Shown here: positions 1,678 through 19,050 of the stretch, piece after piece
Layout of the letters: each line of letters starts with the position of its first letter
Position numbering within the stretch: the first letter of the stretch is position 1
Origin: Candidatus Cloacimonadota bacterium
GTDB lineage: Bacteria > Cloacimonadota > Cloacimonadia > Cloacimonadales > TCS61
NCBI GenBank assembly: GCA_021108055.1
Contig: JAIORR010000233.1
Location: forward strand, 1-27,342
Length of the DNA: 27,342 bases
Reading direction: 5' to 3'
Translations under genes and position numbers: made by a program
The notes under the pieces: model-generated
What the model was told of the DNA's origin: nothing
The model's input: only the letters and a program-made list of their open reading frames with translations
Database searches by the model: none

Positions 1678-3249
1678 ATGGGTTTGAGGTGGAGCTATTT
1701 CGACAAATTAGATTGTTCTATTGTTGATCAGATCAAGAAGAACAGGAATCTACCGGATTCCTTCTTTTCTTTTTCTATGAACGACATACCAGATATTTCA
1801 TTAATGAAAGATATAAAAAAAGCTTCAGAAAGAATTATCCGGGCTATTCACAGAAAAGAAAAAATAATAATATATGGTCACGATGATGTTGACGGCATTA
1901 CTTCCGCTTATATCTTATTTGATTTTTTAGAAAAAATAGGTTCACAAAATCATTATTATTATATTCCAAACCGCCTTGTAGATAATCATGGAATGCAGGA
2001 AAATTTTATAAATAAAGTTGAGAAAGAAAATTTTAACCTTGTGATCACGGTAGATGGCGGAATATCCTGCTCGGAAGCTATCGAAAAACTCAGAAACCTG
2101 GGATGCGATGTTATCGTAACCGACCACCATATAGTGCAGGAAAACAAAATCCCAAAGGGTTGTGCTATCGTTAACCCGAAACAAAGCGATTGTGATTATC
2201 CATTCGATATGCTGGCAGGTGTTGGCGTCACTTATTTTTTGATCCGTAATATTGCCGAAATTTTAAAAAGCGAGATCGACAGCAATTATCTGTTCTGGGT
2301 TGCCGTGGGAACCATATCCGACAAAGTTCCCCTGATCGGTGTGAACCGGATAATTGTGAAAGAGACTATAAAAAATTGGTTTGATTTTGACGATGCAACG
2401 TTACGGAAATTTGATAAATATTTATGGAATGCCGATAATTGTCATAAGAAGATAAAGATAATCCAATATATAATAAAGATTTTTTCCAATGGCAGAGACC
2501 TAAATGGAAAAAACATGGGATTAGAATTACTGCTGGCACCGGAAGATGAAAAAACAAGTATTATTGATAAACTTATTAGCGGACAAAGAAAATTTAAAGA
2601 AAACCTGAATAAAGTAATGGAATGTTATGATAAGATAAAACCGGAAAGTTTTGATAATCACTTTGTTTTCTTTGATAGCAAGAATATAATCCCTGTCGAA
2701 TTGCTGGGATTTTTTTCGGCAAGAATTTCTAAACAGTTTCTAATTCCAGTAGTTTTTCTAAAAGAAAAAGGAAATATTGTTGCGGGTGAAGCAAGATGTA
2801 CAAAAGGTTTCAATCTCGTTGAGTCCTTCTGTTTTTGCAAACAAAACCTTATACAATACGGCGGTCATGCAAAGGCAGCAGGATTTACGATAAAAAAGAA
2901 GAATATAAATAAATTTAGAAAAAAATTCAAAGAATATATCGAGATGAAGAAAGAAATTATAGAAGACAATAGAAAGATCGATATCGATGCGATCTTCACA
3001 ATAGATGAGATCGATAAATTTGATGATTACCTGCAATTAGATATTCACAATTTGCAGCCATTCGGACAGGGAAATCCAAATCCAAAATTCCTACTGAAGA
3101 ATTTCATTCCAAAACGTGATTCCCGAAAAATAAAAGTTATAGATAAAAATATTATTTTAAAACCAGATGAAAGCTATAATATTATTTTTAATTTAAAAGG
3201 TTCGTCTTTCAAACTGATAGACCATCGAAAAGTAAATTATATGTTGTAA
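1678..3249 (+). CDS. recJ: RecJ-like DHH/DHHA1 phosphoesterase (ssDNA exonuclease-like, divergent)
   Basis: Motifs YGHDDVDG, YYIPNRL, ITVDGG, TDHH, AGVGV, GTISD, GGHAKAAG and LQPFGQGNPNP. Confidence 0.75.
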   Translation: MGLRWSYFDKLDCSIVDQIKKNRNLPDSFFSFSMNDIPDISLMKDIKKASERIIRAIHRKEKIIIYGHDDVDGITSAYILFDFLEKIGSQNHYYYIPNRLVDNHGMQENFINKVEKENFNLVITVDGGISCSEAIEKLRNLGCDVIVTDHHIVQENKIPKGCAIVNPKQSDCDYPFDMLAGVGVTYFLIRNIAEILKSEIDSNYLFWVAVGTISDKVPLIGVNRIIVKETIKNWFDFDDATLRKFDKYLWNADNCHKKIKIIQYIIKIFSNGRDLNGKNMGLELLLAPEDEKTSIIDKLISGQRKFKENLNKVMECYDKIKPESFDNHFVFFDSKNIIPVELLGFFSARISKQFLIPVVFLKEKGNIVAGEARCTKGFNLVESFCFCKQNLIQYGGHAKAAGFTIKKKNINKFRKKFKEYIEMKKEIIEDNRKIDIDAIFTIDEIDKFDDYLQLDIHNLQPFGQGNPNPKFLLKNFIPKRDSRKIKVIDKNIILKPDESYNIIFNLKGSSFKLIDHRKVNYML

Positions 3250-3279
3250 ATTATTATGAATTAGATCATCGGAGTAAAA

Positions 3280-3450
3280 ATGAGAATTAATAAAGAACTT
3301 TGTGATATCTGCGGAACCTGCGTTGCGGTGTGTCCAGCGGATGCCATCATTGTATCTGAATTTGAAGTAAAGATCGATAATAAAAAATGTACTAATTGCC
3401 TTAATTGTTTAAAGGTTTGTCCCATCAAAGCTATCGAGGAAGGTGACTAA
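3280..3450 (+). CDS. 2x[4Fe-4S] dicluster ferredoxin, 56 aa (not in ORF track)
   Basis: My translation: MRINKELCDICGTCVAVCPADAIIVSEFEVKIDNKKCTNCLNCLKVCPIKAIEEGD. Two CxxCxxCxxxCP motifs, SD GGAG upstream, and its TAA overlaps the next ATG (TAATG). Confidence 0.92.
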   Translation: MRINKELCDICGTCVAVCPADAIIVSEFEVKIDNKKCTNCLNCLKVCPIKAIEEGD

Positions 3451-4643
3451 TGGTACAAGATAGATATGATATAGTTATTATCGGAGCAGGACCAGCCGGA
3501 AGCGTTGCCGCCAGATTTGCAGCACAAAATGGTGCATCTGTTCTTATGCTGGAACGTGACCGTGAACCGGGCATTCCTGTGCGTTGTGCCGAAGGTGTTT
3601 CTCACAATGGAATAGCTCCTTTCATTGACATCGATGAACGGTGGATCGCTTCCCGGATAGAAATTGCAAAATTGCATGCACCAAATGGTGAAACAGCCAA
3701 AATGTATAATAATGGTTTAGGTTATGTTTTAGAACGAAGGGTCTTCGATACAGCTCTTTGCGAACTTGCTGCTAAACATGGGGCACATCTTATTACTAAA
3801 GCGGATGCTCTCGATCTATTGTGGGAAAAAGAGAAAATAACCGGAGTAAAATATAAATATTGCGGTGAGATAAAAACGGTGAAATGTGATATTGTCATCG
3901 GTGCGGATGGCGTGGAATCCCGCGTAGGAAGGTGGGCAGGAATAAAAACTGCCGTTCGTCTTGAAGACATAGATACTTGCGTTCAATATACACTGGCAGA
4001 TATTGATATTGAAGAAAATACCTGTGAATTTTATTTTGGGAATAATGTTTCTCCTGGCGGATATGTGTGGATATTTCCAAAATCCGATCATACAGCAAAT
4101 GTGGGGATAGGACTTTCCGGACATCTTTCGCATAAAAAGGGTCCAAAAAAATATCTCGATGAATTTGTGGAAAAACGCTTTCCCGATGCCAAGATAACTT
4201 ACACTGTTTATGGCGGCGTTCCCACATCTGCTACTCTTAAGGAGATAGTTCGTGATAACATTATGCTGGTTGGTGATGCTGCACGGCAGGTTAACCCGAT
4301 AACAGGCGGTGGTGTGGTGCAGGGAATGATTGCGGCAAGTATAGCAGGAAAAGTTGCTGCAGATGCGGTACGAGAAAAAAGATTCGATGCAAAATTCCTG
4401 AAAAAATACAGCAGTGAATGGGAAAAGAAACTTGGAAAAACTCAGAGGACAATGTTTACCATGAAAGAGAAATTTCTTACAATGAGCGATGAAAGATTTA
4501 ACAACATTGTACGTTTTTGCCAAAAAATTCCCAAAGATAAATTTGGTTTGAAGGTGCTTTTTACAGAAGCGGTCAAAGGAGATCCAAAACTCATGGTAGA
4601 TGTTGCAAAAGCATTTGTGATGAGTAAATTGAAAAGGAAATGA
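3450..4643 (+). CDS. Geranylgeranyl reductase family flavoprotein, archaeal DGGR-like
   Basis: GAGPAGS FAD-binding motif, PVRCAEG, GADGVESRVGRWAG, PGGYVWIFP and VGDAARQVNPITGGG. Confidence 0.85.
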   Translation: MVQDRYDIVIIGAGPAGSVAARFAAQNGASVLMLERDREPGIPVRCAEGVSHNGIAPFIDIDERWIASRIEIAKLHAPNGETAKMYNNGLGYVLERRVFDTALCELAAKHGAHLITKADALDLLWEKEKITGVKYKYCGEIKTVKCDIVIGADGVESRVGRWAGIKTAVRLEDIDTCVQYTLADIDIEENTCEFYFGNNVSPGGYVWIFPKSDHTANVGIGLSGHLSHKKGPKKYLDEFVEKRFPDAKITYTVYGGVPTSATLKEIVRDNIMLVGDAARQVNPITGGGVVQGMIAASIAGKVAADAVREKRFDAKFLKKYSSEWEKKLGKTQRTMFTMKEKFLTMSDERFNNIVRFCQKIPKDKFGLKVLFTEAVKGDPKLMVDVAKAFVMSKLKRK

Positions 4644-8326: not shown

Positions 8327-9082
8327 ATGGGAAGAATAATTACAATCGTAAACCAAAAGGGAGGGGTAGGCAAAACTACTACTGCGATCAGTCTTGCTTC
8401 TGCTCTTGCTATTTTTGAAAGAAAGACGTTATTAATAGATTTTGATCCTCAGGGAAATACTTCCAGTGGCGTTGGAGCTGAAAAGAAAAACCCGAATATT
8501 TATGAAGCATTGATAGGGAAAGTACCTTTGAAGGATGTGATCAAACCTTCTTCTATCCTTAAAAAGCTGGAAATTGCTCCGGCAAACGTCGATTTGAGTG
8601 GAGCAGAGATCGAGCTTGTGAAGGAATATTCACGGGAATATAAGCTGAAGAAAATCGTAGAGCCGCTTATAAATGATTATGAATTTATCATTATCGACTG
8701 TCCTCCTTCGCTGGGGCTGCTCACGGTTAATGCACTTACAGCCTGCACGGACGTTATCATTCCAATTCAATGTGAATATTATGCACTGGAAGGTGTGAGT
8801 CAGCTCCTTACTACCATCCGATTGATTAAAAAAGGATTGAACCCGGGACTTAATATAATGGGTATTTTACTCACATTATATGATAGAAGACTAAACCTTT
8901 CACGACAGGTTGCCAAGGAAGTTAGAAGATATTTTCAGGAACAGGTTTTTGAAACGATCATTCATAGAAGTGTAAAACTGAGTGAAGCTCCGGGTTTCGG
9001 GAAATCTATTTTTCATTATGATATAAAATCTCCGGGTTCAAAAAGCTATTTGGAATTAGCAAAGGAAGTGATGGCAAGATGA
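8327..9082 (+). CDS. parA: Chromosome partitioning ATPase ParA/Soj
   Basis: NQKGGVGKTTT deviant Walker A, DFDPQGN, IIDCPPSLGLLT and QCEYYALEG. Confidence 0.96.
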   Translation: MGRIITIVNQKGGVGKTTTAISLASALAIFERKTLLIDFDPQGNTSSGVGAEKKNPNIYEALIGKVPLKDVIKPSSILKKLEIAPANVDLSGAEIELVKEYSREYKLKKIVEPLINDYEFIIIDCPPSLGLLTVNALTACTDVIIPIQCEYYALEGVSQLLTTIRLIKKGLNPGLNIMGILLTLYDRRLNLSRQVAKEVRRYFQEQVFETIIHRSVKLSEAPGFGKSIFHYDIKSPGSKSYLELAKEVMAR

Positions 9083-9930
9083 CAAAATTAGGCAGAGGTT
9101 TAGAAGCACTGATAGATTCGGGACCTGAATCTACCGATAAAACAACTGGAATAACAACAATAAAAATCGATAACATAGCTCCAAACAGGTATCAGCCCCG
9201 TAAAAGATTCGATAAGAAAAAATTGCAGGAACTCGCAAATTCTCTTAAGGAAAATGGTCTCATCCAGCCGATCATTGTCACGAAAAGAGATGAAACAAAA
9301 TATGAACTCGTTGCAGGCGAAAGAAGATTGGAAGCATCACGACTTGCCGGATTTGATGAAATTCCTGTTATTATCAGAAGTGTTTCTCCCAAAGAACAAC
9401 TTCAATTTGCGATCATCGAAAACGTTCAACGAGAAGACCTGAGTGCTATCGAGGAAGCAAGGGCTTACCAGCAATTGAATGAAGAATTTAAATTAACTCA
9501 TTCCCAGATATCTGAAATTGTAGGAAAAGATAGAGTTACTATTTCAAATCTTATTCGCCTTTTAAAGTTAAATGATAATATTCAGCAGATGATATTGGAT
9601 GAAAAAATCTCATCCGGACATGCACGTGCTGTTCTTCAGGTTGATGAACAACTGCAGGAAGATTTTGCAAATCTGATATTAAAAAATAATTTGTCGGTAA
9701 GAAAAACAGAATTAGAAGCAAAACGAATCAAAGAAACAGGTTCTGTCCATAGACAAAAACCAGAAACAATTGTGATTCCAAAGTTAAATGAATATGAAAA
9801 AACACTCATTAACTCCTATAAAATGAGAGTAACGATTTCCGGAAAGGAAGATAAAGGCAGGATAATATTTCATTATGCTTCCGAAAAGGAATTGACTAAA
9901 CTTATCAAGGCTTTAAAAAAAAATAAATGA
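9079..9930 (+). CDS. parB: Chromosome partitioning protein ParB/Spo0J
   Basis: LGRGLEAL N-terminal peptide, PNRYQPR, LVAGERR, ENVQREDL and HTH. ATGA overlap with parA. Confidence 0.96.
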   Translation: MTKLGRGLEALIDSGPESTDKTTGITTIKIDNIAPNRYQPRKRFDKKKLQELANSLKENGLIQPIIVTKRDETKYELVAGERRLEASRLAGFDEIPVIIRSVSPKEQLQFAIIENVQREDLSAIEEARAYQQLNEEFKLTHSQISEIVGKDRVTISNLIRLLKLNDNIQQMILDEKISSGHARAVLQVDEQLQEDFANLILKNNLSVRKTELEAKRIKETGSVHRQKPETIVIPKLNEYEKTLINSYKMRVTISGKEDKGRIIFHYASEKELTKLIKALKKNK

Positions 9931-10610
9931 ATAAATTATTATTATTTCTTTTTTTAATCGTAATTGTTGCACTGGTTCTTGTTTATTCAGAGAATAGAAA
10001 ATTAAATTCCATCAACAAAGAGCAAAAGCAGAAACTGGAAGTATCCGAAGAATATATAGAACACATTACAAATGAAATAAATAAAATGCCATCTACAGAA
10101 GAGACCGACATTTCCAATTCCGATAGATTAAGAAATGCTTTGAATAATTATTTACAAAAACGTAAGACAGATAAAGAAAAAAATAAAGTTAATGTTGATA
10201 ATATCCATGAAAAACTTTCACAAAATGAAAAAAAAGGAAGATTCATTCCCAACCTTATTCCTATTAACGGAGATTATGCAATAAGTCAGAGGTATTCCGA
10301 AGACCATCCGGCTCTCGATTTTGCTGCTGCAAATGGAACCGAGGTTGTAGCTGCTGCCGCAGGTGTTGTTCGGGCTGTTTACGAAGATGACTATTTTGGA
10401 ATCGTTATGACGGTAGATCACCTTAACGAATATTCTACACTCTATGCGCATCTTTCTGCTGCTGTTTACGAAACCAGGATATTTGTAGAAAAAGGTGAAA
10501 CTATTGCCCTGGTCGGAAATACAGGAAATAGCTCTGCTCCTCATCTTCATTTTGAAATAATAAAAAACGATGAATATTTAGACCCGGGAAAATTTTTAGT
10601 AAAAGAATGA
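9927..10610 (+). CDS. Membrane-anchored M23 family peptidase
   Basis: N-terminal TM plus coiled-coil-like stretch; HPALDF, YAHL and GNTGNSSAPHLHFE zinc motifs. Confidence 0.9.
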   Translation: MNKLLLFLFLIVIVALVLVYSENRKLNSINKEQKQKLEVSEEYIEHITNEINKMPSTEETDISNSDRLRNALNNYLQKRKTDKEKNKVNVDNIHEKLSQNEKKGRFIPNLIPINGDYAISQRYSEDHPALDFAAANGTEVVAAAAGVVRAVYEDDYFGIVMTVDHLNEYSTLYAHLSAAVYETRIFVEKGETIALVGNTGNSSAPHLHFEIIKNDEYLDPGKFLVKE

Positions 10611-10624
10611 AAAGAGAGGATAAT

Positions 10625-11026
10625 ATGGCAAGAAACAAGAAAGTGGAGCTTTCTACAATAATTGGAAAAGGAAGCAAGATAAAAGGTTCTTTGATCATCG
10701 AAGGTGGTATTCGCATCGATGGCAAAGTGGAAGGCTCGATCGAATCAGACGGATTTGTTACGATCGGACTTTCCGGTGTAGCAAAAGCCGATATTAAAGC
10801 CGACGAGTGTCTTGTTTCCGGTAAGGTTGAAGGGAACATCGTTTGTGAAGATGCCCTCGAACTTGATAGAACCGCCAACTTAACAGGAGATATTATAGCA
10901 AAAGTGTTGAAAATTCACACAGGAGCTGTATTTAACGGTACAAGTAAAATGAACAAAAACAACAAACCTGCTGTTGCTAAAACTTTTGTTTATAAAAAAG
11001 ATGAGGAAGAAAAAAAATCTCAATAA
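10625..11026 (+). CDS. Bactofilin (polymer-forming cytoskeletal protein, CcmA-like)
   Basis: STIIGKG.KIKG.L...GGIRIDGKVEG.I beta-helix repeats and GAVFNG end motif. I prefer ATG 10625 after GAGGA over 10607. Confidence 0.9.
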   Translation: MARNKKVELSTIIGKGSKIKGSLIIEGGIRIDGKVEGSIESDGFVTIGLSGVAKADIKADECLVSGKVEGNIVCEDALELDRTANLTGDIIAKVLKIHTGAVFNGTSKMNKNNKPAVAKTFVYKKDEEEKKSQ

Positions 11027-11228
11027 GGAGTGGTATAAATATTTTAGTTTAATATCACAACTTGGACTCGTTGTAGTTTCATCTATCTTGATATTTTTCT
11101 TTCTTTTCCTTTATTTAGACAGGAAATTCAATACAAACGGTATCCTTATGGCGGTCGGTGTATTTCTTGGAGTAATATTGGGAGTGCTGGGAGCATATAG
11201 GCTGTTAAGAAAAATATACAGGGATTAA
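11001..11228 (+). CDS. ATP synthase accessory protein AtpZ/AtpI (gene 1 type)
   Basis: Two TM helices with SQLG...LDRKFNT...GV.LG pattern. First gene of the atp operon. The start at 11001 is inferred. Confidence 0.78.
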   Translation: MRKKKNLNKEWYKYFSLISQLGLVVVSSILIFFFLFLYLDRKFNTNGILMAVGVFLGVILGVLGAYRLLRKIYRD

Positions 11229-11244
11229 GTACTATAAAAATAAG

Positions 11245-11616
11245 ATGAATAACAAAATATATGTTAAGAGAATCGTGATTATTATTCTCTTGACAAACGT
11301 ACCTGCTATTTTGAGTCTGCCGTTGTTTTATAAAGAAGCTTTAGGTTGGATTTCGGGTTCAATTGCAAGTTTTATAAATTTTATATGGCTTGCAGATAAT
11401 GTGAAAAAAAGTATGAGACTACTGGAAACCAAATCTAAATTGAATGCTGTAAAAGGAACATTGCTGAGATTATTGTTCCTTGCTGTATATTCTGCGGTAA
11501 TAGTTTATTTATTAAGACCGAACATAGTTGTTTTTGGATTGGGGTTACTTTCGGCACAGATATGCATTTACGGAAATGAGATTTACGAGAATATAAAAAA
11601 AAGTAAGTATTTTTGA
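11245..11616 (+). CDS. atpI: ATP synthase protein I (UncI)
   Basis: 123 aa with about 4 TM helices (GSIASFINF...LRL...FGLGLL), directly upstream of subunit a. Confidence 0.72.
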   Translation: MNNKIYVKRIVIIILLTNVPAILSLPLFYKEALGWISGSIASFINFIWLADNVKKSMRLLETKSKLNAVKGTLLRLLFLAVYSAVIVYLLRPNIVVFGLGLLSAQICIYGNEIYENIKKSKYF

Positions 11617-11623
11617 GGTTGAA

Positions 11624-12535
11624 ATGGCAAAGAAAAAAAACCCGATGTTAAAAATATTTTTGATATTCTTCATTATAGAGATCATACTTGTATTTTTATC
11701 CGGTAATTTTTCCAGACAGCTTCAAGTTGGATTTGAAAACAAAAAGTTCGTTCTCAGAAATATTGAATTTCATTATGACCTCCAGGATGAAATAACAGAA
11801 GAATTCCAGATAGATGAATACAATAGGCAAAATAACATCACTCCCGATGTTTATGGAAGTGAAAAAATATATGATCTTTTTAAAAGATTTTTTGGAGCAC
11901 CAACAGCTCTTGGAACATTTCAACTTTTGCGAATGATCCTGATCGTAGATATTGTACTTCTGTTCATGGCACTATATATCAGGAAGCATTTGTTGGCTCG
12001 TCCTTCAAAATCACAACTTATTTTTGAATTGATATATACTTCATTAGAAGAATTTGTTACAGAAACTCTGGGAAAAGAAAAGGCAAATTACACGCCGTAT
12101 ATTGTTACTCTTTTCATCTTTATCTGGGTATGCAATATGATCGGCATGATTCCGATACCGGGATTTATGGAGCCTACAAGGAATTTAAATGTACCGCTGG
12201 GTCTCGGCTTTATGGTCGTCATTGTTGTACACTTCACGGCAATAAAAATGAAGGGTGCCTGGAAACATTTCCAGAACTATATTAATCCAATAAAAAATCC
12301 TCTTTGCCTTTTAGATATAGTTGGGGAAATGTCAAAAGTCGTTTCAATTTCTTTCCGTCTTTTTGGAAATATTCTGGGTGGAGCTATCATTATTCTGGTA
12401 GTTTCTTCACTTGTTAGTTTCGTTGTTTTTCCTGTAGGGCTGAATTTATTCTTCGGTATGTTTGTAGGAACGATTCAGGCATTTGTATTTACAATGCTTG
12501 CTCTCACATATATTGGTGTGGAAATTTCGGAGTGA
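11624..12535 (+). CDS. atpB: Fo subunit a, with N-terminal extension
   Basis: PSKSQLIFE, NMIGMIP, PTRNLNV, SISFRLFGNILGG (essential Arg) and IQAFVFTML. Confidence 0.95.
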   Translation: MAKKKNPMLKIFLIFFIIEIILVFLSGNFSRQLQVGFENKKFVLRNIEFHYDLQDEITEEFQIDEYNRQNNITPDVYGSEKIYDLFKRFFGAPTALGTFQLLRMILIVDIVLLFMALYIRKHLLARPSKSQLIFELIYTSLEEFVTETLGKEKANYTPYIVTLFIFIWVCNMIGMIPIPGFMEPTRNLNVPLGLGFMVVIVVHFTAIKMKGAWKHFQNYINPIKNPLCLLDIVGEMSKVVSISFRLFGNILGGAIIILVVSSLVSFVVFPVGLNLFFGMFVGTIQAFVFTMLALTYIGVEISE

Positions 12536-12538
12536 TAG

Positions 12539-13291
12539 ATGGCATTTACTATTGAACAAATTCAAATTGCCGCATACCTCGGTGCAGGACTTTGTGTAGG
12601 TATCGGAGCGGTAACCACCGGAATTGGTTCCGGTATAATTGCCGGAGAAGGAGCACAGGCAATAGTCAAACAACCCAAGGCAAACGAGCAAATTTTCCGA
12701 ACAATGCTTATCGGGCAGGCAGCAGCACAAACTGCCGGAATCTTTGCACTGGTTATTTCCATGCTTCTGATATACGGCAGGTCTGACAGCATAGAAGGAG
12801 GATGGTTCAAAGCTGCTGCATATCTTGCTGCCGGCATTGCAATGGGTTTCGGCTCTATTGGGCCATCTATGGGTGCAGGATATTCCGGAGGACAGGCTTG
12901 TAAGTCTGTTGCCAGAATGCCAAAACACGGAAATGCCATAATGGGAAATATGCTTATCGGTCAGGCACTATCACAAACTTCTGCAATTTTCGCATTAGTT
13001 GTATCTTTTCTTTTATTATATTCTATTCCGGAACAACCCGCCGATATTTCTCTGGGAAGATTAATTGTGAAAACAGTAGCATTTCTTGGAGCAGGACTAT
13101 CGATAGGACTTGGAACTTTGGGTCCCGGGATGGGCATTGGCTTTGTTGCTGGAAAGGCTAATGATATGATAGGCAGGTTTCCGGATGAGAAAGCAAAAAT
13201 CATGAGAACTATGTTTCTGGGATCTGCAGTATCGGAATCAACAGCTATTTATTCGCTTGTAATATCGTTTTTGTTAATATTTGCACTATAA
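12539..13291 (+). CDS. atpE: Fo subunit c, triple-hairpin (6 TM) form with one carboxylate
   Basis: Three tandem c-subunit hairpins with loops KQPK, RMPK and RFPD. Residues at the catalytic position are Q64, Q146 and E233. Confidence 0.92.
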   Translation: MAFTIEQIQIAAYLGAGLCVGIGAVTTGIGSGIIAGEGAQAIVKQPKANEQIFRTMLIGQAAAQTAGIFALVISMLLIYGRSDSIEGGWFKAAAYLAAGIAMGFGSIGPSMGAGYSGGQACKSVARMPKHGNAIMGNMLIGQALSQTSAIFALVVSFLLLYSIPEQPADISLGRLIVKTVAFLGAGLSIGLGTLGPGMGIGFVAGKANDMIGRFPDEKAKIMRTMFLGSAVSESTAIYSLVISFLLIFAL

Positions 13292-13368
13292 TTCAAAATG
13301 AAATCGGCAACAGATAGAACGAGAAAAAAGCAAAATTTCTGAAAGTTCTTTTTTATAGTTGATAATAA

Positions 13369-13397
13369 GTCACCATTGGTTTGTGAAAGACGGTGGC
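13369..13397 (+). promoter_or_regulatory. Intercistronic stem-loop upstream of the single c gene
   Basis: GTCACC (13369-74) pairs with GGTGGC (13392-97), with an inner stem capped by GTGA. It ends 10 nt before the GGAGG SD. Confidence 0.45.
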
Positions 13398-13416
13398 AAA
13401 AAAATATGGAGGAATC

Positions 13417-13668
13417 ATGGACTTAACATTAGCACAGGGAATCGTAAAAGCTTCAGCTCTTTTGGGGGCTGGTTTGTGTATGGGAATGGGTGCTCTGGGA
13501 CCTGGAGTTGGAGAAGGCTTTGTAGCAGGTAAAGCTTGCGAGGGTATTGCTCGTTCTCCGGAAAATGCAAGCTTGATAACCAGAACGATGCTTGTGGGAC
13601 AGGCAGTATCAGAATCTACCGGTATTTATTCTCTGGTTATTGCATTATTGCTTATTTTCTCAACTTAA
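13417..13668 (+). CDS. atpE: Fo subunit c, single hairpin, Na+-type with two-carboxylate motif
   Basis: 83 aa; GPGVGEG (E33) and GQAVSESTGIY (E66, S67, T68, Y71). Strong GGAGG SD before ATG 13417; the track's 13393 start is too early. Confidence 0.95.
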   Translation: MDLTLAQGIVKASALLGAGLCMGMGALGPGVGEGFVAGKACEGIARSPENASLITRTMLVGQAVSESTGIYSLVIALLLIFST

Positions 13669-13735: not shown

Positions 13736-14218
13736 ATGATTAGTATAAATTATGCGTTCATTATTGTTATATTGAATTTTGTTCTTTTACTCATTATATT
13801 GAATAAAATTCTTTATAAACCAATAAAGAAATTTCTGGCTGAGCGGCAGAAAAACATATCAGATGATATAGATAACGCAAATGAATCAAAAGAAAAAGCA
13901 GCAAAACTTGTTGAAGAAAAAGAAGGGGAATTAAAGACCTCTGCAGAAGAAATAAGAAAGATGAAAACTGCTGCCAAGAAAGATGCTGAAATACAATCTT
14001 CTGAAATTGTGAAAAGTGCAAAAAGCAGAGAAAAGAAAATTCTTAAAGATACGGAAGAACAGCTTAAACACGAAAAGGAAAAAGTGAAATCAGAGATCGA
14101 AACAGAAATAATTGAACTGGTTTCAGATCTTTCTACAAAATTCCTTTCAGAAAAACTGGATGATAAAAAAGATGAAGCACTTTTGAAAAAGATACTTTCC
14201 GAGAAAGAGGATAAGTGA
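13736..14218 (+). CDS. atpF: Fo subunit b
   Basis: N-terminal TM with NF..L...L.K.LYKPI.KFL.ER and a long charged helix. SD GGAG. Confidence 0.93.
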   Translation: MISINYAFIIVILNFVLLLIILNKILYKPIKKFLAERQKNISDDIDNANESKEKAAKLVEEKEGELKTSAEEIRKMKTAAKKDAEIQSSEIVKSAKSREKKILKDTEEQLKHEKEKVKSEIETEIIELVSDLSTKFLSEKLDDKKDEALLKKILSEKEDK

Positions 14219-14748
14219 AAGATAAGTTGATCGCTAAACGCTATGCAACTGCTGCAATATTAAATATTCCAGAGAATCAATATTATTCTGTTATGGAAGA
14301 TATGAAGTTTCTTAGAAAAGCATTTGCGCAAGATGAAGATTATATAAAGTCGATCAATTCATATCTTTTTCCATTGCAAAACCGGATAAAGCTGGTGAAG
14401 CAAATATCCGCACAACTCAATAACAGAGTAATCTGGGAAAATCTTTTTGTCCTTTTAGTAAAGAAACACAGGTTTACGATTATTATGGAAGTACTTAATG
14501 AAATGGAAAATACTGTTTTGATCAGTAAAAATCAGGTTAAAGTATCTTTAACGATTGCACATGAACATTCCGAAATAGTGCTGAATAAGATAAGTTCCAA
14601 AATAGCTGATATTATTAAAAAAGATGTTGTGATGAAAGTTAATATCGATCCTGAAATAATTGGGGGATTTATCGCACAAACAGATTCTCTTTTAATTGAT
14701 GGCTCAATAAAAAATGGTTTGGTAAAATTAGTTAGTTCAAAGAAATAA
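14215..14748 (+). CDS. atpH: F1 subunit delta
   Basis: IAKRYA N-terminus and DPEIIGG...IDGSIK C-terminus. GTG start in a GTGA overlap. Confidence 0.9.
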
Positions 14749-14762
14749 TAAATGAGGTCAGA

Positions 14763-16243
14763 ATGAAGATTCAACCAGATGAAATAAGTTCGATACTAAA
14801 AGATAAAATAAACGATTTTAAATTCGAGATCGATATTGCCGAAACAGGAAAAGTAGTTCAGGTCGGCGATGGAATAGCCCGCATTTATGGAATGGATAAT
14901 GTAATGGCTGGCGAAATGATCGAATTTACAGGCGGTGTTGTTGGTATGGCTCTGAACCTTGAAGAAGATAATGTCGGGTGCATAATATTTGGTGAAACCA
15001 GAAAGATCAAAGAAGGTGATATTGCCAAAAGGACAAAGAAGATACTCCAGGTTCCCGTGGGGGAAGAAATGTTGGGTCGTGTTATTAATGCTTTGGGGCA
15101 TCCTATCGATGGAAAAGGTGAAATTAAAGCAGATGAATATAAACCGATAGAAAGAAAAGCTCTTGGAATTATTCAAAGGCAGCCTGTAAAAGAACCATTG
15201 CAGACTGGCTTGAAAGCGATCGATTCGATGATACCGATAGGTAGAGGACAAAGGGAATTAATTATTGGTGACCGGCAAACAGGAAAATCTGCTATCGCCA
15301 TCGATACGATCATAAACCAGAAAGATTCGGATATTATTTGTATCTATGTTGCCATCGGACAGAAAAAATCTTCCGTGGCTAAAATAGTTAAAACATTAGA
15401 AGCACACCAGGCTATGGATTATACGATAATTGTTACGGCATCGGCATCCGAATCGGCATCTCTAAGATACCTTGCTCCTTATGCAGGTTGTACGGTCGGA
15501 GAATTTTTCCGGGACAACGGAAAACATGCTCTCATAATCTATGATGATCTTTCCAAACACGCTGTTTCATATCGTGAACTATCACTTCTGCTCAGGAGAC
15601 CTCCAGGACGTGAAGCATATCCCGGCGATGTATTTTATCTGCATTCGAGGCTTCTGGAAAGAGCTTCCAAACTAAGCAATGAACTTGGCGGCGGTTCTCT
15701 TACTGCACTTCCTATCATAGAAACTCAGGCAGATGATATAACAGCTTACATTCCAACCAATGTGATTTCTATTACAGATGGGCAGATATATCTTGGCAGC
15801 CGTTTGTTTTATTCGGGGATAAGACCTGCCATTAATGCCGGACTTTCTGTTTCCCGCGTTGGCGGAAGTGCACAGATCAAAGCAATGAAAAGCGTTACCG
15901 GACAGCTTCGTCTCGACCTTGCTCAATATGCGGAATTGGAAGCATTCTCGATAAGGCAACTCAGGCTCAGCTTCGACGCGGTGAAAGACTTGTGGAAATT
16001 CTAAAACAGGATCAATATTCACCACTGCCTGTAGAAAAGCAGATATTCATTATCTTTATGGCAAACGAAGGCTATCTTGACGAGATCGAAATTAACGATG
16101 TTAAGAAGGTAGAAGAAGAACTTTATTCAACCCTTGATTCCGAATATAAAGAATTTATGAAAAGTATGATAAAAGATAAGATTACAGATGAAATGAAAGA
16201 AGCAATGCGCAAAATCTGTAAAAAGGTTTTAAAGAAGTTCTAA
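14763..16243 (+). pseudogene. atpA: F1 subunit alpha, frameshifted at 15949/15950 (inferred ~19-nt deletion; possibly an assembly artefact)
   Basis: GDRQTGKS and [15 protein letters not shown] present. Homology runs to ...ELEAF(S), then continues in another frame as [20 protein letters not shown] to the stop at 16243. The QFGSDL segment is absent. Confidence 0.9.
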
Positions 16244-16252
16244 GGAAATCAA

Positions 16253-17104
16253 ATGGCGAACATCAAAGAAATAAAAATGCGAATAGAAAGCGTTAAAAAC
16301 ACCAGGCAAATTACGAATGCCATGAGGATGGTTGCTGCTGCTAAATTACGAAAAGCTCAGGAGAACATCATTAAAGCACGCCCTTATGCTGACCATATCA
16401 ATAATATGCTTCGAATGATAAAACTCAAGAATAAAGCAACAGATCATCCGATTCTTACAAATGTTGAAGGTAAAGGAAAAAGTGCATTCATAATTGTAAC
16501 TTCCGATAGAGGACTTTGCGGCTCATTTAATTCACAGATCATACGTAAAGCACTAAAACATATTGAACAACATCCCGATGCAGATCTTATATGTATCGGA
16601 AAAAAAAGTTATGATTATTTCAGAAAACATTCCACAAATGTTACAGAAAAATATATAAATCTTTTCAATGAAATGGATTTCAGTGTTTCCAGCGATGTTG
16701 CTGAAAAGATTCTTGAATTATATCTTGATCAGAATTATAAAAAGATCGATATTTTATATAATGAATTCAAATCTGCAATTCAGCAAGATATTATCGTAAA
16801 GCAGCTTCTTCCTGTTAAGCCAATTGAAATGGAAGATGTAACGAATTTGGATTTTCTATATGAACCTGATGAGGATACGATCATTGAAGAAATTGGAAGA
16901 AAACATATTAAAGTGGAAATCTGGAGGATAATGTTAGAATCTTCTGCAGCAGAGCAAGGTGCCAGAATGACCGCAATGGATTCTGCAACGGATAATGCTA
17001 CCGATTTAATAGGAGAATTAACATTAAGATATAACAGGGTAAGACAAGCAAGTATAACAACAGAAATTATAGAAATAGCTTCGGGAGCTGAAGCTTTGCA
17101 ATAG
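16253..17104 (+). CDS. atpG: F1 subunit gamma
   Basis: ITNAMRMVAAAKL, TSDRGLCGSFN, EQGARMTAMDSATDNA and RQASITTEI. Confidence 0.97.
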   Translation: MANIKEIKMRIESVKNTRQITNAMRMVAAAKLRKAQENIIKARPYADHINNMLRMIKLKNKATDHPILTNVEGKGKSAFIIVTSDRGLCGSFNSQIIRKALKHIEQHPDADLICIGKKSYDYFRKHSTNVTEKYINLFNEMDFSVSSDVAEKILELYLDQNYKKIDILYNEFKSAIQQDIIVKQLLPVKPIEMEDVTNLDFLYEPDEDTIIEEIGRKHIKVEIWRIMLESSAAEQGARMTAMDSATDNATDLIGELTLRYNRVRQASITTEIIEIASGAEALQ

Positions 17105-17125: not shown

Positions 17126-18649
<1,524 letters not shown>

Positions 18650-18651
18650 AT

Positions 18652-19050
18652 ATGAGTAAAATAAAATTAACCGTGGTTCAACCTTTTCAAACAAAGATAA
18701 AAGGTGATTTTGATCATATAATTATTCCCGGAGTTGATGGAGATTTCGGAATTGATAGTGGGCATACTCCATTCATCACAAAAATAAGACCGGGAAACTT
18801 GAAACTTTATTTAGGAAGGAATATAGAGAAATATGCAATTCATGATGGATTTGTGACTGTAGAAAATGACCAGGTTACAATTGTTTGTGAGATTATGGAA
18901 AGAGATAACGAAATTAATGCGAAAAGAGCTCAAGAATCAAAAGAAAGAGCTGAAAAAAGACTGAAAAGTTCTTCAGAAGAAATTGATTTTCGTAGAGCTG
19001 AAATTGCTCTGAAAAAAGCATTAGTGCGATTGGGAATTGTAAAAAATTAA
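18652..19050 (+). CDS. atpC: F1 subunit epsilon
   Basis: IPGVDGDFGI..GHTP, IHDGFVTV and C-terminal helices RA..SKERAEKRL...ALKKALVRL. Confidence 0.95.
   Translation: MSKIKLTVVQPFQTKIKGDFDHIIIPGVDGDFGIDSGHTPFITKIRPGNLKLYLGRNIEKYAIHDGFVTVENDQVTIVCEIMERDNEINAKRAQESKERAEKRLKSSSEEIDFRRAEIALKKALVRLGIVKN

Follow-up and report, generated by a model that had tools for sequence, protein, structure and literature searches.

A triple-hairpin c subunit beside a single Na+-type c subunit in the F-type ATP synthase operon of Cloacimonadota: a candidate hybrid rotor

The DNA analyzed here, referred to as the window, is a stretch of 27,342 nucleotides from a Candidatus Cloacimonadota bacterium (GenBank assembly GCA_021108055.1, contig JAIORR010000233.1, positions 1 to 27,342), whose genome of 2.13 Mb (373 contigs, 94% complete) was assembled from metagenomes of marine sediment and cold seep. 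It carries an atp operon with all genes on the forward strand, in the order AtpZ-like, atpI, atpB, c3, c, atpF, atpH, atpA, atpG, atpD, atpC (Table 1), in which the rotor subunit c is encoded twice: by a gene for three fused hairpins, which we call c3, and by the single-hairpin gene that follows it. An earlier note on this DNA, made from its letters, had described the two genes, the fused hairpins and a list of diagnostic residues and codons, and had assigned c3 one carboxylate, E233, at a site lacking its helix-1 ligand (I200 in that position). Pfam matches and an alignment of the three c3 hairpins with the neighboring single c bear out this description throughout.

At the ion-binding position of the second helix, hairpins 1 and 2 of c3 carry Gln (Q64, codon CAA at 12728-12730; Q146, CAA at 12974-12976) and hairpin 3 carries Glu (E233, GAA at 13235-13237), a pattern abbreviated below as Q-Q-E. 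Every hairpin retains a Gly-rich inner helix and an [R/K]-x-P loop, and an AlphaFold2 model of c3 built with 77 homologues predicts six helices, with a predicted local distance difference test score (pLDDT) of 96 and a predicted template modeling score (pTM) of 0.91. Several F-type c models of NCBIfam pass their cut-offs on c3, whereas the best V-type K model reaches 66 bits against a cut-off of 211, placing c3 outside the V/A-type proteolipids (subunit K/c); NCBIfam holds no model for a three-hairpin c, and c3 matches the single-hairpin models three times. The single c reads E, E, S, T and Y at the columns aligned with the diagnostic residues of c3, which constitutes the two-carboxylate Na+ motif E..E-S-T..Y and agrees with the signature of Na+-binding F-type c subunits (helix-1 Glu or Gln together with helix-2 E-[ST]-[ST]-x-x-Y). 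Its start is most likely the ATG at 13417, with GGAGGA five bases upstream, rather than the GTG at 13393.

Around these two genes the operon is that of a canonical F1Fo ATP synthase, as had been claimed from the sequence: the Pfam hits, the atpI-B-E-F-H-A-G-D-C gene set and order, and the score of the beta subunit against TIGR01039 all agree on this point. An N-ATPase was considered and rejected, since the alternate-beta model TIGR03305 gave 591 bits, below its cut-off of 752, and the gene order is not atpDCQRBEFAG. Elsewhere in the 373 contigs of this 94% complete genome, neither a further c subunit nor a further catalytic subunit of F- or V-type was found, indicating that the operon encodes its only rotary ATPase and ruling out a second ATPase as the real worker. 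Other genes of this genome, for an RnfD/NqrB-type subunit, a membrane pyrophosphatase and a Na+-translocating decarboxylase beta subunit, are consistent with the sodium-based energy metabolism published for Cloacimonadota (PMC8542988).

Table 1. Genes of the atp cluster and hairpins of c3, in window coordinates (aa, amino acids; ORF, open reading frame).
Feature	Coordinates	Strand	Basis
AtpZ-like small membrane protein (ATPase_gene1 family), first atp-cluster gene, start codon uncertain	10974..11228	+	PF09527, E 9.7e-12
atpI	11245..11616	+	PF03899, E 9.6e-8
atpB (subunit a)	11624..12535	+	PF00119, E 4.8e-45, over residues 104-297
c3, triple-hairpin c, 250 aa, six predicted transmembrane helices, Q-Q-E	12539..13291	+	three PF00137 stretches, E 1.9e-45
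c3 hairpin 1 (aa 1-82): S31, Q64, T65, A66, F69; no carboxylate; loop KQP	12539..12784	+	alignment
c3 hairpin 2 (aa 83-168): A113, Q146, T147, S148, F151; no carboxylate; loop RMP	12785..13042	+	alignment
c3 hairpin 3 (aa 169-250): I200, E233, S234, T235, Y238; sole carboxylate; loop RFP	13043..13288	+	alignment
Single-hairpin c (atpE), 83 aa	13417..13668	+	PF00137, E 9.2e-18
atpF (subunit b)	13736..14218	+	position and ORF only; position matches ATP-synt_B in related loci
atpH (delta)	14215..14748	+	position and ORF only
atpA (alpha), read as two ORFs	14763..16243	+	Pfam domains divided between both ORFs
atpG (gamma)	16253..17104	+	position and ORF only
atpD (beta), canonical F-type	17135..18649	+	TIGR01039, 834 bits vs cut-off 463
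atpC (epsilon)	18652..19050	+	position and ORF only

A search of 232 genomes of the phylum recovered c3 in 129 of them, representing 56 of 66 genera and 16 of 17 families, and a single c lay directly 3' of c3 in 48 of the 50 loci inspected; an arrangement repeated on this scale is not a chance feature. The whole c3 gene shows ratios of nonsynonymous to synonymous substitution rates (dN/dS) of 0.03-0.09 against close relatives (dS being saturated for most pairs; 0.026/0.293 in the closest), compared with 0-0.04 for the single c, and the per-hairpin ratio stays at or below 0.13 wherever it could be computed, carboxylate-free hairpins included. These low ratios mark c3 as a constrained, functional gene. 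The exception is f3 in our labeling, the largest family of the phylum, in whose 98 genomes only three weak c3 matches appeared. The five f3 genomes examined (G004, G007, G010, G020, G044; loci L040-L048) have a c gene with two PF00137 units and 173-183 amino acids, the size of a V-type K subunit; two of the five also have a separate single c resembling that of N-ATPases. A narrow hairpin hidden Markov model did not recover the V-type K genes of this family. A metagenome-assembled genome (MAG) labeled Armatimonadota (L092) encodes a protein with 64% identity to c3, a value inside the Cloacimonadota range, so that its label may reflect mis-binning.

The atpA gene of the window is read as two ORFs, and the earlier note had suggested that it would need repair before the operon could be expressed. 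No repair is needed: the assembly lacks 19 nucleotides after window position 15945 that are present, at full contig depth, in Logan contigs of three runs (X1, X2, X3), and with these bases restored atpA becomes one open frame of 499 amino acids, reading ...AELEAFSKFGSDLDKATQ... The frameshift is thus an assembly artefact and, the missing bases being present in three run assemblies, the operon is to be treated as intact. A pseudogene or broken operon was also considered, and is ruled out by this assembly deletion and by the strong purifying selection on c3. Elsewhere in the cluster, residues 1-103 of atpB (window 11624-11930) form an extension of about 100 residues ahead of the Pfam ATP-synt_A domain, with a hydrophobic stretch near the N-terminus, and atpD ends in a 43-residue Lys- and Ser-rich tail (residues 462-504, window 18518-18646) that runs past the end of the family model and closes in a Lys/Arg run. 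Immediately 5' of the cluster, on the same strand (8327-11026), lie ParA-like and ParB-like ORFs, one peptidase-like ORF and one small repeat-rich ORF, named from their translations only.

The carboxylate pattern of c3 differs between lineages of the phylum. Among the 30 closest loci of family f1, 29 are Q-Q-E with a hairpin 1 of the form S..AQTA..F and the remaining one is Q-Q-Q, while family f7 includes one Q-Q-E and one G-Q-E locus. In most of the other families the pattern is E-Q-E and the site of hairpin 1, E/E-T, is complete; f15 and f16 are E-Q-Q, f14 is Q-Q-Q (closed genomes of 1.6 Mb among them), and some other lineages are G-Q-Q, the last two patterns leaving no carboxylate at all. 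Conservation of the two Gln residues among homologues, which the earlier note had named beforehand as one test of its reading, held for one of them: hairpin 2 has Gln nearly everywhere (Q146 is at least 90% conserved), but Q64 is confined to the clade of the window and is mostly Glu elsewhere. The ancestral pattern was probably E-Q-E, with the Q-Q-E of the window derived from it; the lineage of the window would later have lost the first carboxylate, and some lineages all three. Among the 104 homologues with residues at the S-T columns of hairpin 3, 103 keep the pair, even ones whose own Glu has turned into Gln.

By sequence, the best match of c3 among solved structures is the c1 subunit of Acetobacterium woodii (chain 4bem_J, E 1.3e-27), with c3 residues 11-164 on c1 residues 27-180, in a register that pairs hairpin 1 with the Glu-bearing hairpin of c1 and hairpin 2 with the Gln-bearing one. 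Searching the PDB with each hairpin gave the same pairing, hairpin 1 matching best at c1 residues 27-95 and hairpin 2 at 104-180, whereas hairpin 3 alone resembles active single hairpins (A. woodii c2, 65 bits; Fusobacterium nucleatum, 64 bits; Ilyobacter tartaricus, 62.5 bits). Foldseek on the c3 model likewise places 4bem_J first (template modeling (TM) score 0.81 on the target, root-mean-square deviation 1.7 A, 39% identity), ahead of V-type proteolipids. The A. woodii subunit, to which the earlier note had pointed, is accordingly the closest solved relative in both sequence and fold. In a tree of individual hairpins, restricted to 84 columns and weak in its deep branches, each of the three Cloacimonadota hairpins has a clade of its own (support 100/96, 99/97 and 97/98 for hairpins 1, 2 and 3), from which it follows that the triplication is older than the diversity sampled here. 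The nearest neighbors of hairpin 3 are single c subunits and the last hairpins of the four- and five-hairpin proteins described below, while hairpin 1 lies with the first hairpins of these proteins; the A. woodii hairpins were compared by the per-hairpin PDB searches. The simplest history that we infer from these relationships starts with a double hairpin of the c1 kind (E-Q), to which a third hairpin resembling single c was joined; carboxylates were then lost in some lineages.

A. woodii and, judging from sequence, Clostridium aceticum have Na+ F1Fo enzymes with a hybrid rotor, built from c1, with two hairpins and one site, together with the subunits named c2/c3 there (PDB 4BEM; PMC7911925; PMC9171764). 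As in the window, the A. woodii operon is of F-type with an atpI gene and has a multi-hairpin c followed by a single Na+-type c, with Gln in place of a carboxylate. The window matches this kind of rotor at the gene level, with both c genes in one F-type operon, the Gln substitution and homology to c1. However, c3 has three hairpins and six helices instead of the two hairpins and four helices of c1, which makes it a variant rather than the same kind of subunit. An ancestral E-Q-E c3 combined with eight single c subunits would give 10 sites in 11 hairpins, equal to A. woodii, while in the c3 of the window the first carboxylate is also gone, which would leave two consecutive blind positions, and the remaining site has no helix-1 Gln/Glu ligand; its host moreover belongs to another phylum.

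Other rotors resemble c3 in part. The triplicated c of the A1AO enzyme of Methanocaldococcus jannaschii has three hairpins and two carboxylates, and thus shares with c3 three fused hairpins with fewer carboxylates than hairpins, but it serves an A-type enzyme of archaea, which lacks a partner single c and whose ring is presumably homomeric, and its triplication is independent of that of c3. V-type proteolipids (Enterococcus hirae NtpK, eukaryotic c/c'/c'') likewise consist of fused hairpins, with one site per two hairpins completed by the preceding outer helix, and are the second-best fold matches to c3 (TM score about 0.8 on the target); they differ in their low identity (17-29%), in serving V/A-type enzymes and in never having adjacent blind positions. 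The c11 Na+ rings of I. tartaricus and F. nucleatum (PDB 1YCE, 3ZK1) are matched by the single c and by hairpin 3 at E 1e-15 to 1e-16, the single c carrying the two-carboxylate motif of the F. nucleatum type, but these rings are homomeric and made of single hairpins.

The earlier note had also proposed a gear shift, in which cells would tune the ion/ATP ratio by changing how many copies of c3 enter a ring. Beyond the presence of two c genes, nothing found here speaks for this idea. The genes lie in one operon, and a search for an internal promoter, attenuator, terminator or structured RNA between c3 and c returned signals at chance level only, the 125-base spacer of the window folding no better than shuffled sequence; that spacer, moreover, varies between relatives. 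The variation that is seen is evolutionary, with two, one or no carboxylates according to lineage, and the A. woodii ring has a composition fixed at 9:1. A regulatory element at this position is therefore rejected, and the proposal of tuning by copy number, left unsupported, appears highly improbable.

The pair is not peculiar to this genome. The earlier note had called for a search for proteins with three ATP-synt_C units beside a single atpE, and these proved to be phylum-wide, with kin of three to five hairpins in further phyla. Desulfarculaceae and Desulfococcus have four- and five-hairpin proteins (about 324 and 402 residues) in Fo operons ordered AtpZ-like, atpI, atpB, multi-hairpin c, single c, atpF, atpF; an AtpZ-like gene lies 5' of atpI in Desulfobacterota Fo operons as in the window. 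A scan of species-representative genomes yielded 80 loci, 48 of them (L104-L151) outside Cloacimonadota, in Thermodesulfobacteriota (among them Dethiosulfatarculus sandiegensis SPR and Desulfonema limicola), Margulisiibacteriota, Planctomycetota including Brocadiaceae, Latescibacterota, Omnitrophota, Methylomirabilis and Anaerolineales. A c of three, four or five hairpins precedes a single c in 47 of the 48; the remaining contig ends within the multi-hairpin gene. The single c of these loci reads E-E-[ST]-T..Y in nearly all cases (two are truncated and two differ at one position).

Outside the phylum, the multi-hairpin proteins (38-45% identity to c3) share the gene order and the overall plan of the window pair: the first hairpin is active, those in the middle have Gln (at times Thr or Ser), and the last one retains S-T..Y with or without a Glu of its own. 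Their first hairpin is nearly always active, unlike that of the window. Three loci have features of their own. The cultured isolate Dethiosulfatarculus sandiegensis SPR (L108, about 2958-4530) encodes a five-hairpin c of pattern E-Q-Q-Q-E followed by a single Na+-type c, and is a possible experimental system; a Desulfobacteraceae MAG (L124, about 2994-4600) has a four-hairpin c followed by two single c genes, echoing the c1-c2-c3 order of A. woodii; and a MAG labeled Alteromonas sp. (L105, 44% identity) groups by residue pattern with Marinamargulisbacteria loci, so that its label looks doubtful.

In E. hirae NtpK and the I. tartaricus c11 ring, each carboxylate site is completed by the outer helix of the preceding hairpin, which contributes a backbone carbonyl and the two residues that follow its own carboxylate position. 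Counting each distinct residue pattern once, we found that a hairpin has an intact S/T donor pair far more often if a carboxylate is present in the next one, with odds ratios of 14 in Cloacimonadota and 7.6 in other phyla; when the opposite handedness is assumed, these ratios are 0.79 (not significant) and 0.13. The covariation thus supports this handedness of ligand donation. Applied to the window, it would give four interfaces along c3. Those from the previous subunit to hairpin 1 (Q64) and from hairpin 1 to hairpin 2 (Q146, donors T65 and A66) would be dead; that from hairpin 2 to hairpin 3 would join E233 to the donors T147 and S148, but with Ile at the helix-1 ligand position; and that from hairpin 3 to the next subunit would complete the Na+ site of the latter, since S234 and T235 are kept. 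The last hairpin usually retains S-T..Y even where its own carboxylate has been lost, a conservation that makes little sense unless, in a ring, c3 is immediately followed by a live Na+ site.

Taking sequence, structural model and analogy together, we consider it likely that c3 enters the same c-ring as the single c, as c1 does in A. woodii, occupying three positions with one carboxylate and lowering the Na+/ATP ratio, because each copy would place two consecutive ion-blind positions in the ring. Both the conservation of the gene and the covariation of its ligands are consistent with a hybrid ring having fewer sites. Were c3 and the single c instead to build separate homomeric rings (for example four c3, giving 12 hairpins with 4 sites), the cell would hold two enzyme populations of very different ion/ATP ratio. 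In the A-type enzymes of archaea and in V-type enzymes, fused multi-hairpin c subunits do make up homomeric rings, and V-type chains are the next-best fold matches to c3. But the Q-Q-Q and G-Q-Q lineages have no carboxylate, and c3 could therefore not make a working ring by itself there, yet the gene is conserved; the last hairpin keeps its donors for a following live site; and both genes share one operon, with no regulatory signal between them. The two kinds of c in A. woodii, furthermore, share one ring (PDB 4BEM). Separate rings thus seem very unlikely.

The same carboxylate-free lineages bear on the further idea that c3 acts outside the mature rotor, either as a template or nucleus for assembly, determining the size of the ring, or as a membrane protein of another role: in them the task of c3 evidently dispenses with ion carriage, and atpI and an AtpZ-like gene lie nearby. 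However, the [R/K]-x-P loops that contact F1 and the Gly packing motifs are retained in all three hairpins, the covariation of donor residues with neighboring carboxylates is that expected of real ring interfaces, and a nucleus that stayed in the ring would be the shared ring itself. We therefore regard a role outside the rotor as unlikely.

In the shared ring that we favor, each copy of c3 would fill three positions and supply E233 as its only carboxylate, at a site without a helix-1 ligand (I200). The solved Na+ F-type rings known to us have 11 hairpins, and the inner-helix Gly motif in the window is similar to theirs. A ring of this size with one copy of c3 would have 9 sites (3.0 Na+/ATP) compared with 11 (3.67) in a ring of single c alone, whereas an E-Q-E copy would leave 10 sites and a Q-Q-Q copy 8. 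With fewer ions per ATP, hydrolysis could build a larger sodium gradient, or synthesis could become cheaper in ions while needing more driving force. Several points weigh against this picture. The size of 11 hairpins is adopted by analogy with the solved Na+ rings; we know of no characterized precedent for two or three consecutive blind positions, which may carry a mechanical cost in the direction of synthesis; donor handedness is taken from the NtpK and c11 structures, along with the covariation counts; and the sequences counted are kin to each other, so that the p-values for covariation overstate the support.

To our knowledge, a single type of bacterial hybrid rotor has been characterized, that of A. 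woodii (C. aceticum being assigned to it from sequence), whose ring contains just one blind position. A full-text literature search that did retrieve the A. woodii/C. aceticum rotor and the archaeal multi-hairpin c subunits found no description of an F-type c with at least three hairpins, though Brandt & Müller 2015 may mention one; that review, according to PMC13343851, surveyed multiple atpE copies in Rnf-dependent anaerobes. It is conceivable, if somewhat short of probable, that partly or wholly ion-blind c subunits of three to five hairpins, each accompanied by a single Na+-type c, constitute a class of F-type rotor component that is widespread among anaerobes from several phyla and so far undescribed; their rings would contain two to four blind positions in a row, and their Na+/ATP ratios would be lineage-specific. 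On that reading the ratio would be set differently by lineage through the stepwise loss of carboxylates (E-Q-E, Q-Q-E, Q-Q-Q), and the window would represent the one-site stage.

The ion/ATP ratio sets both the smallest quantum of energy that a cell can conserve and the size of the gradient that it can build from ATP. If the proposed class is real, it would provide a natural series of rotors in which one to four blind positions lie side by side and an otherwise orthologous subunit offers two, one or no sites. With such a series one could test how the interface between subunit a and the c-ring passes long blind stretches, and whether fermenters and syntrophs short of energy adjust their coupling ratio by means of blind hairpins. 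Cloacimonadota are abundant in digesters and anoxic sediments, and their ATP yield therefore matters for models of syntrophy.

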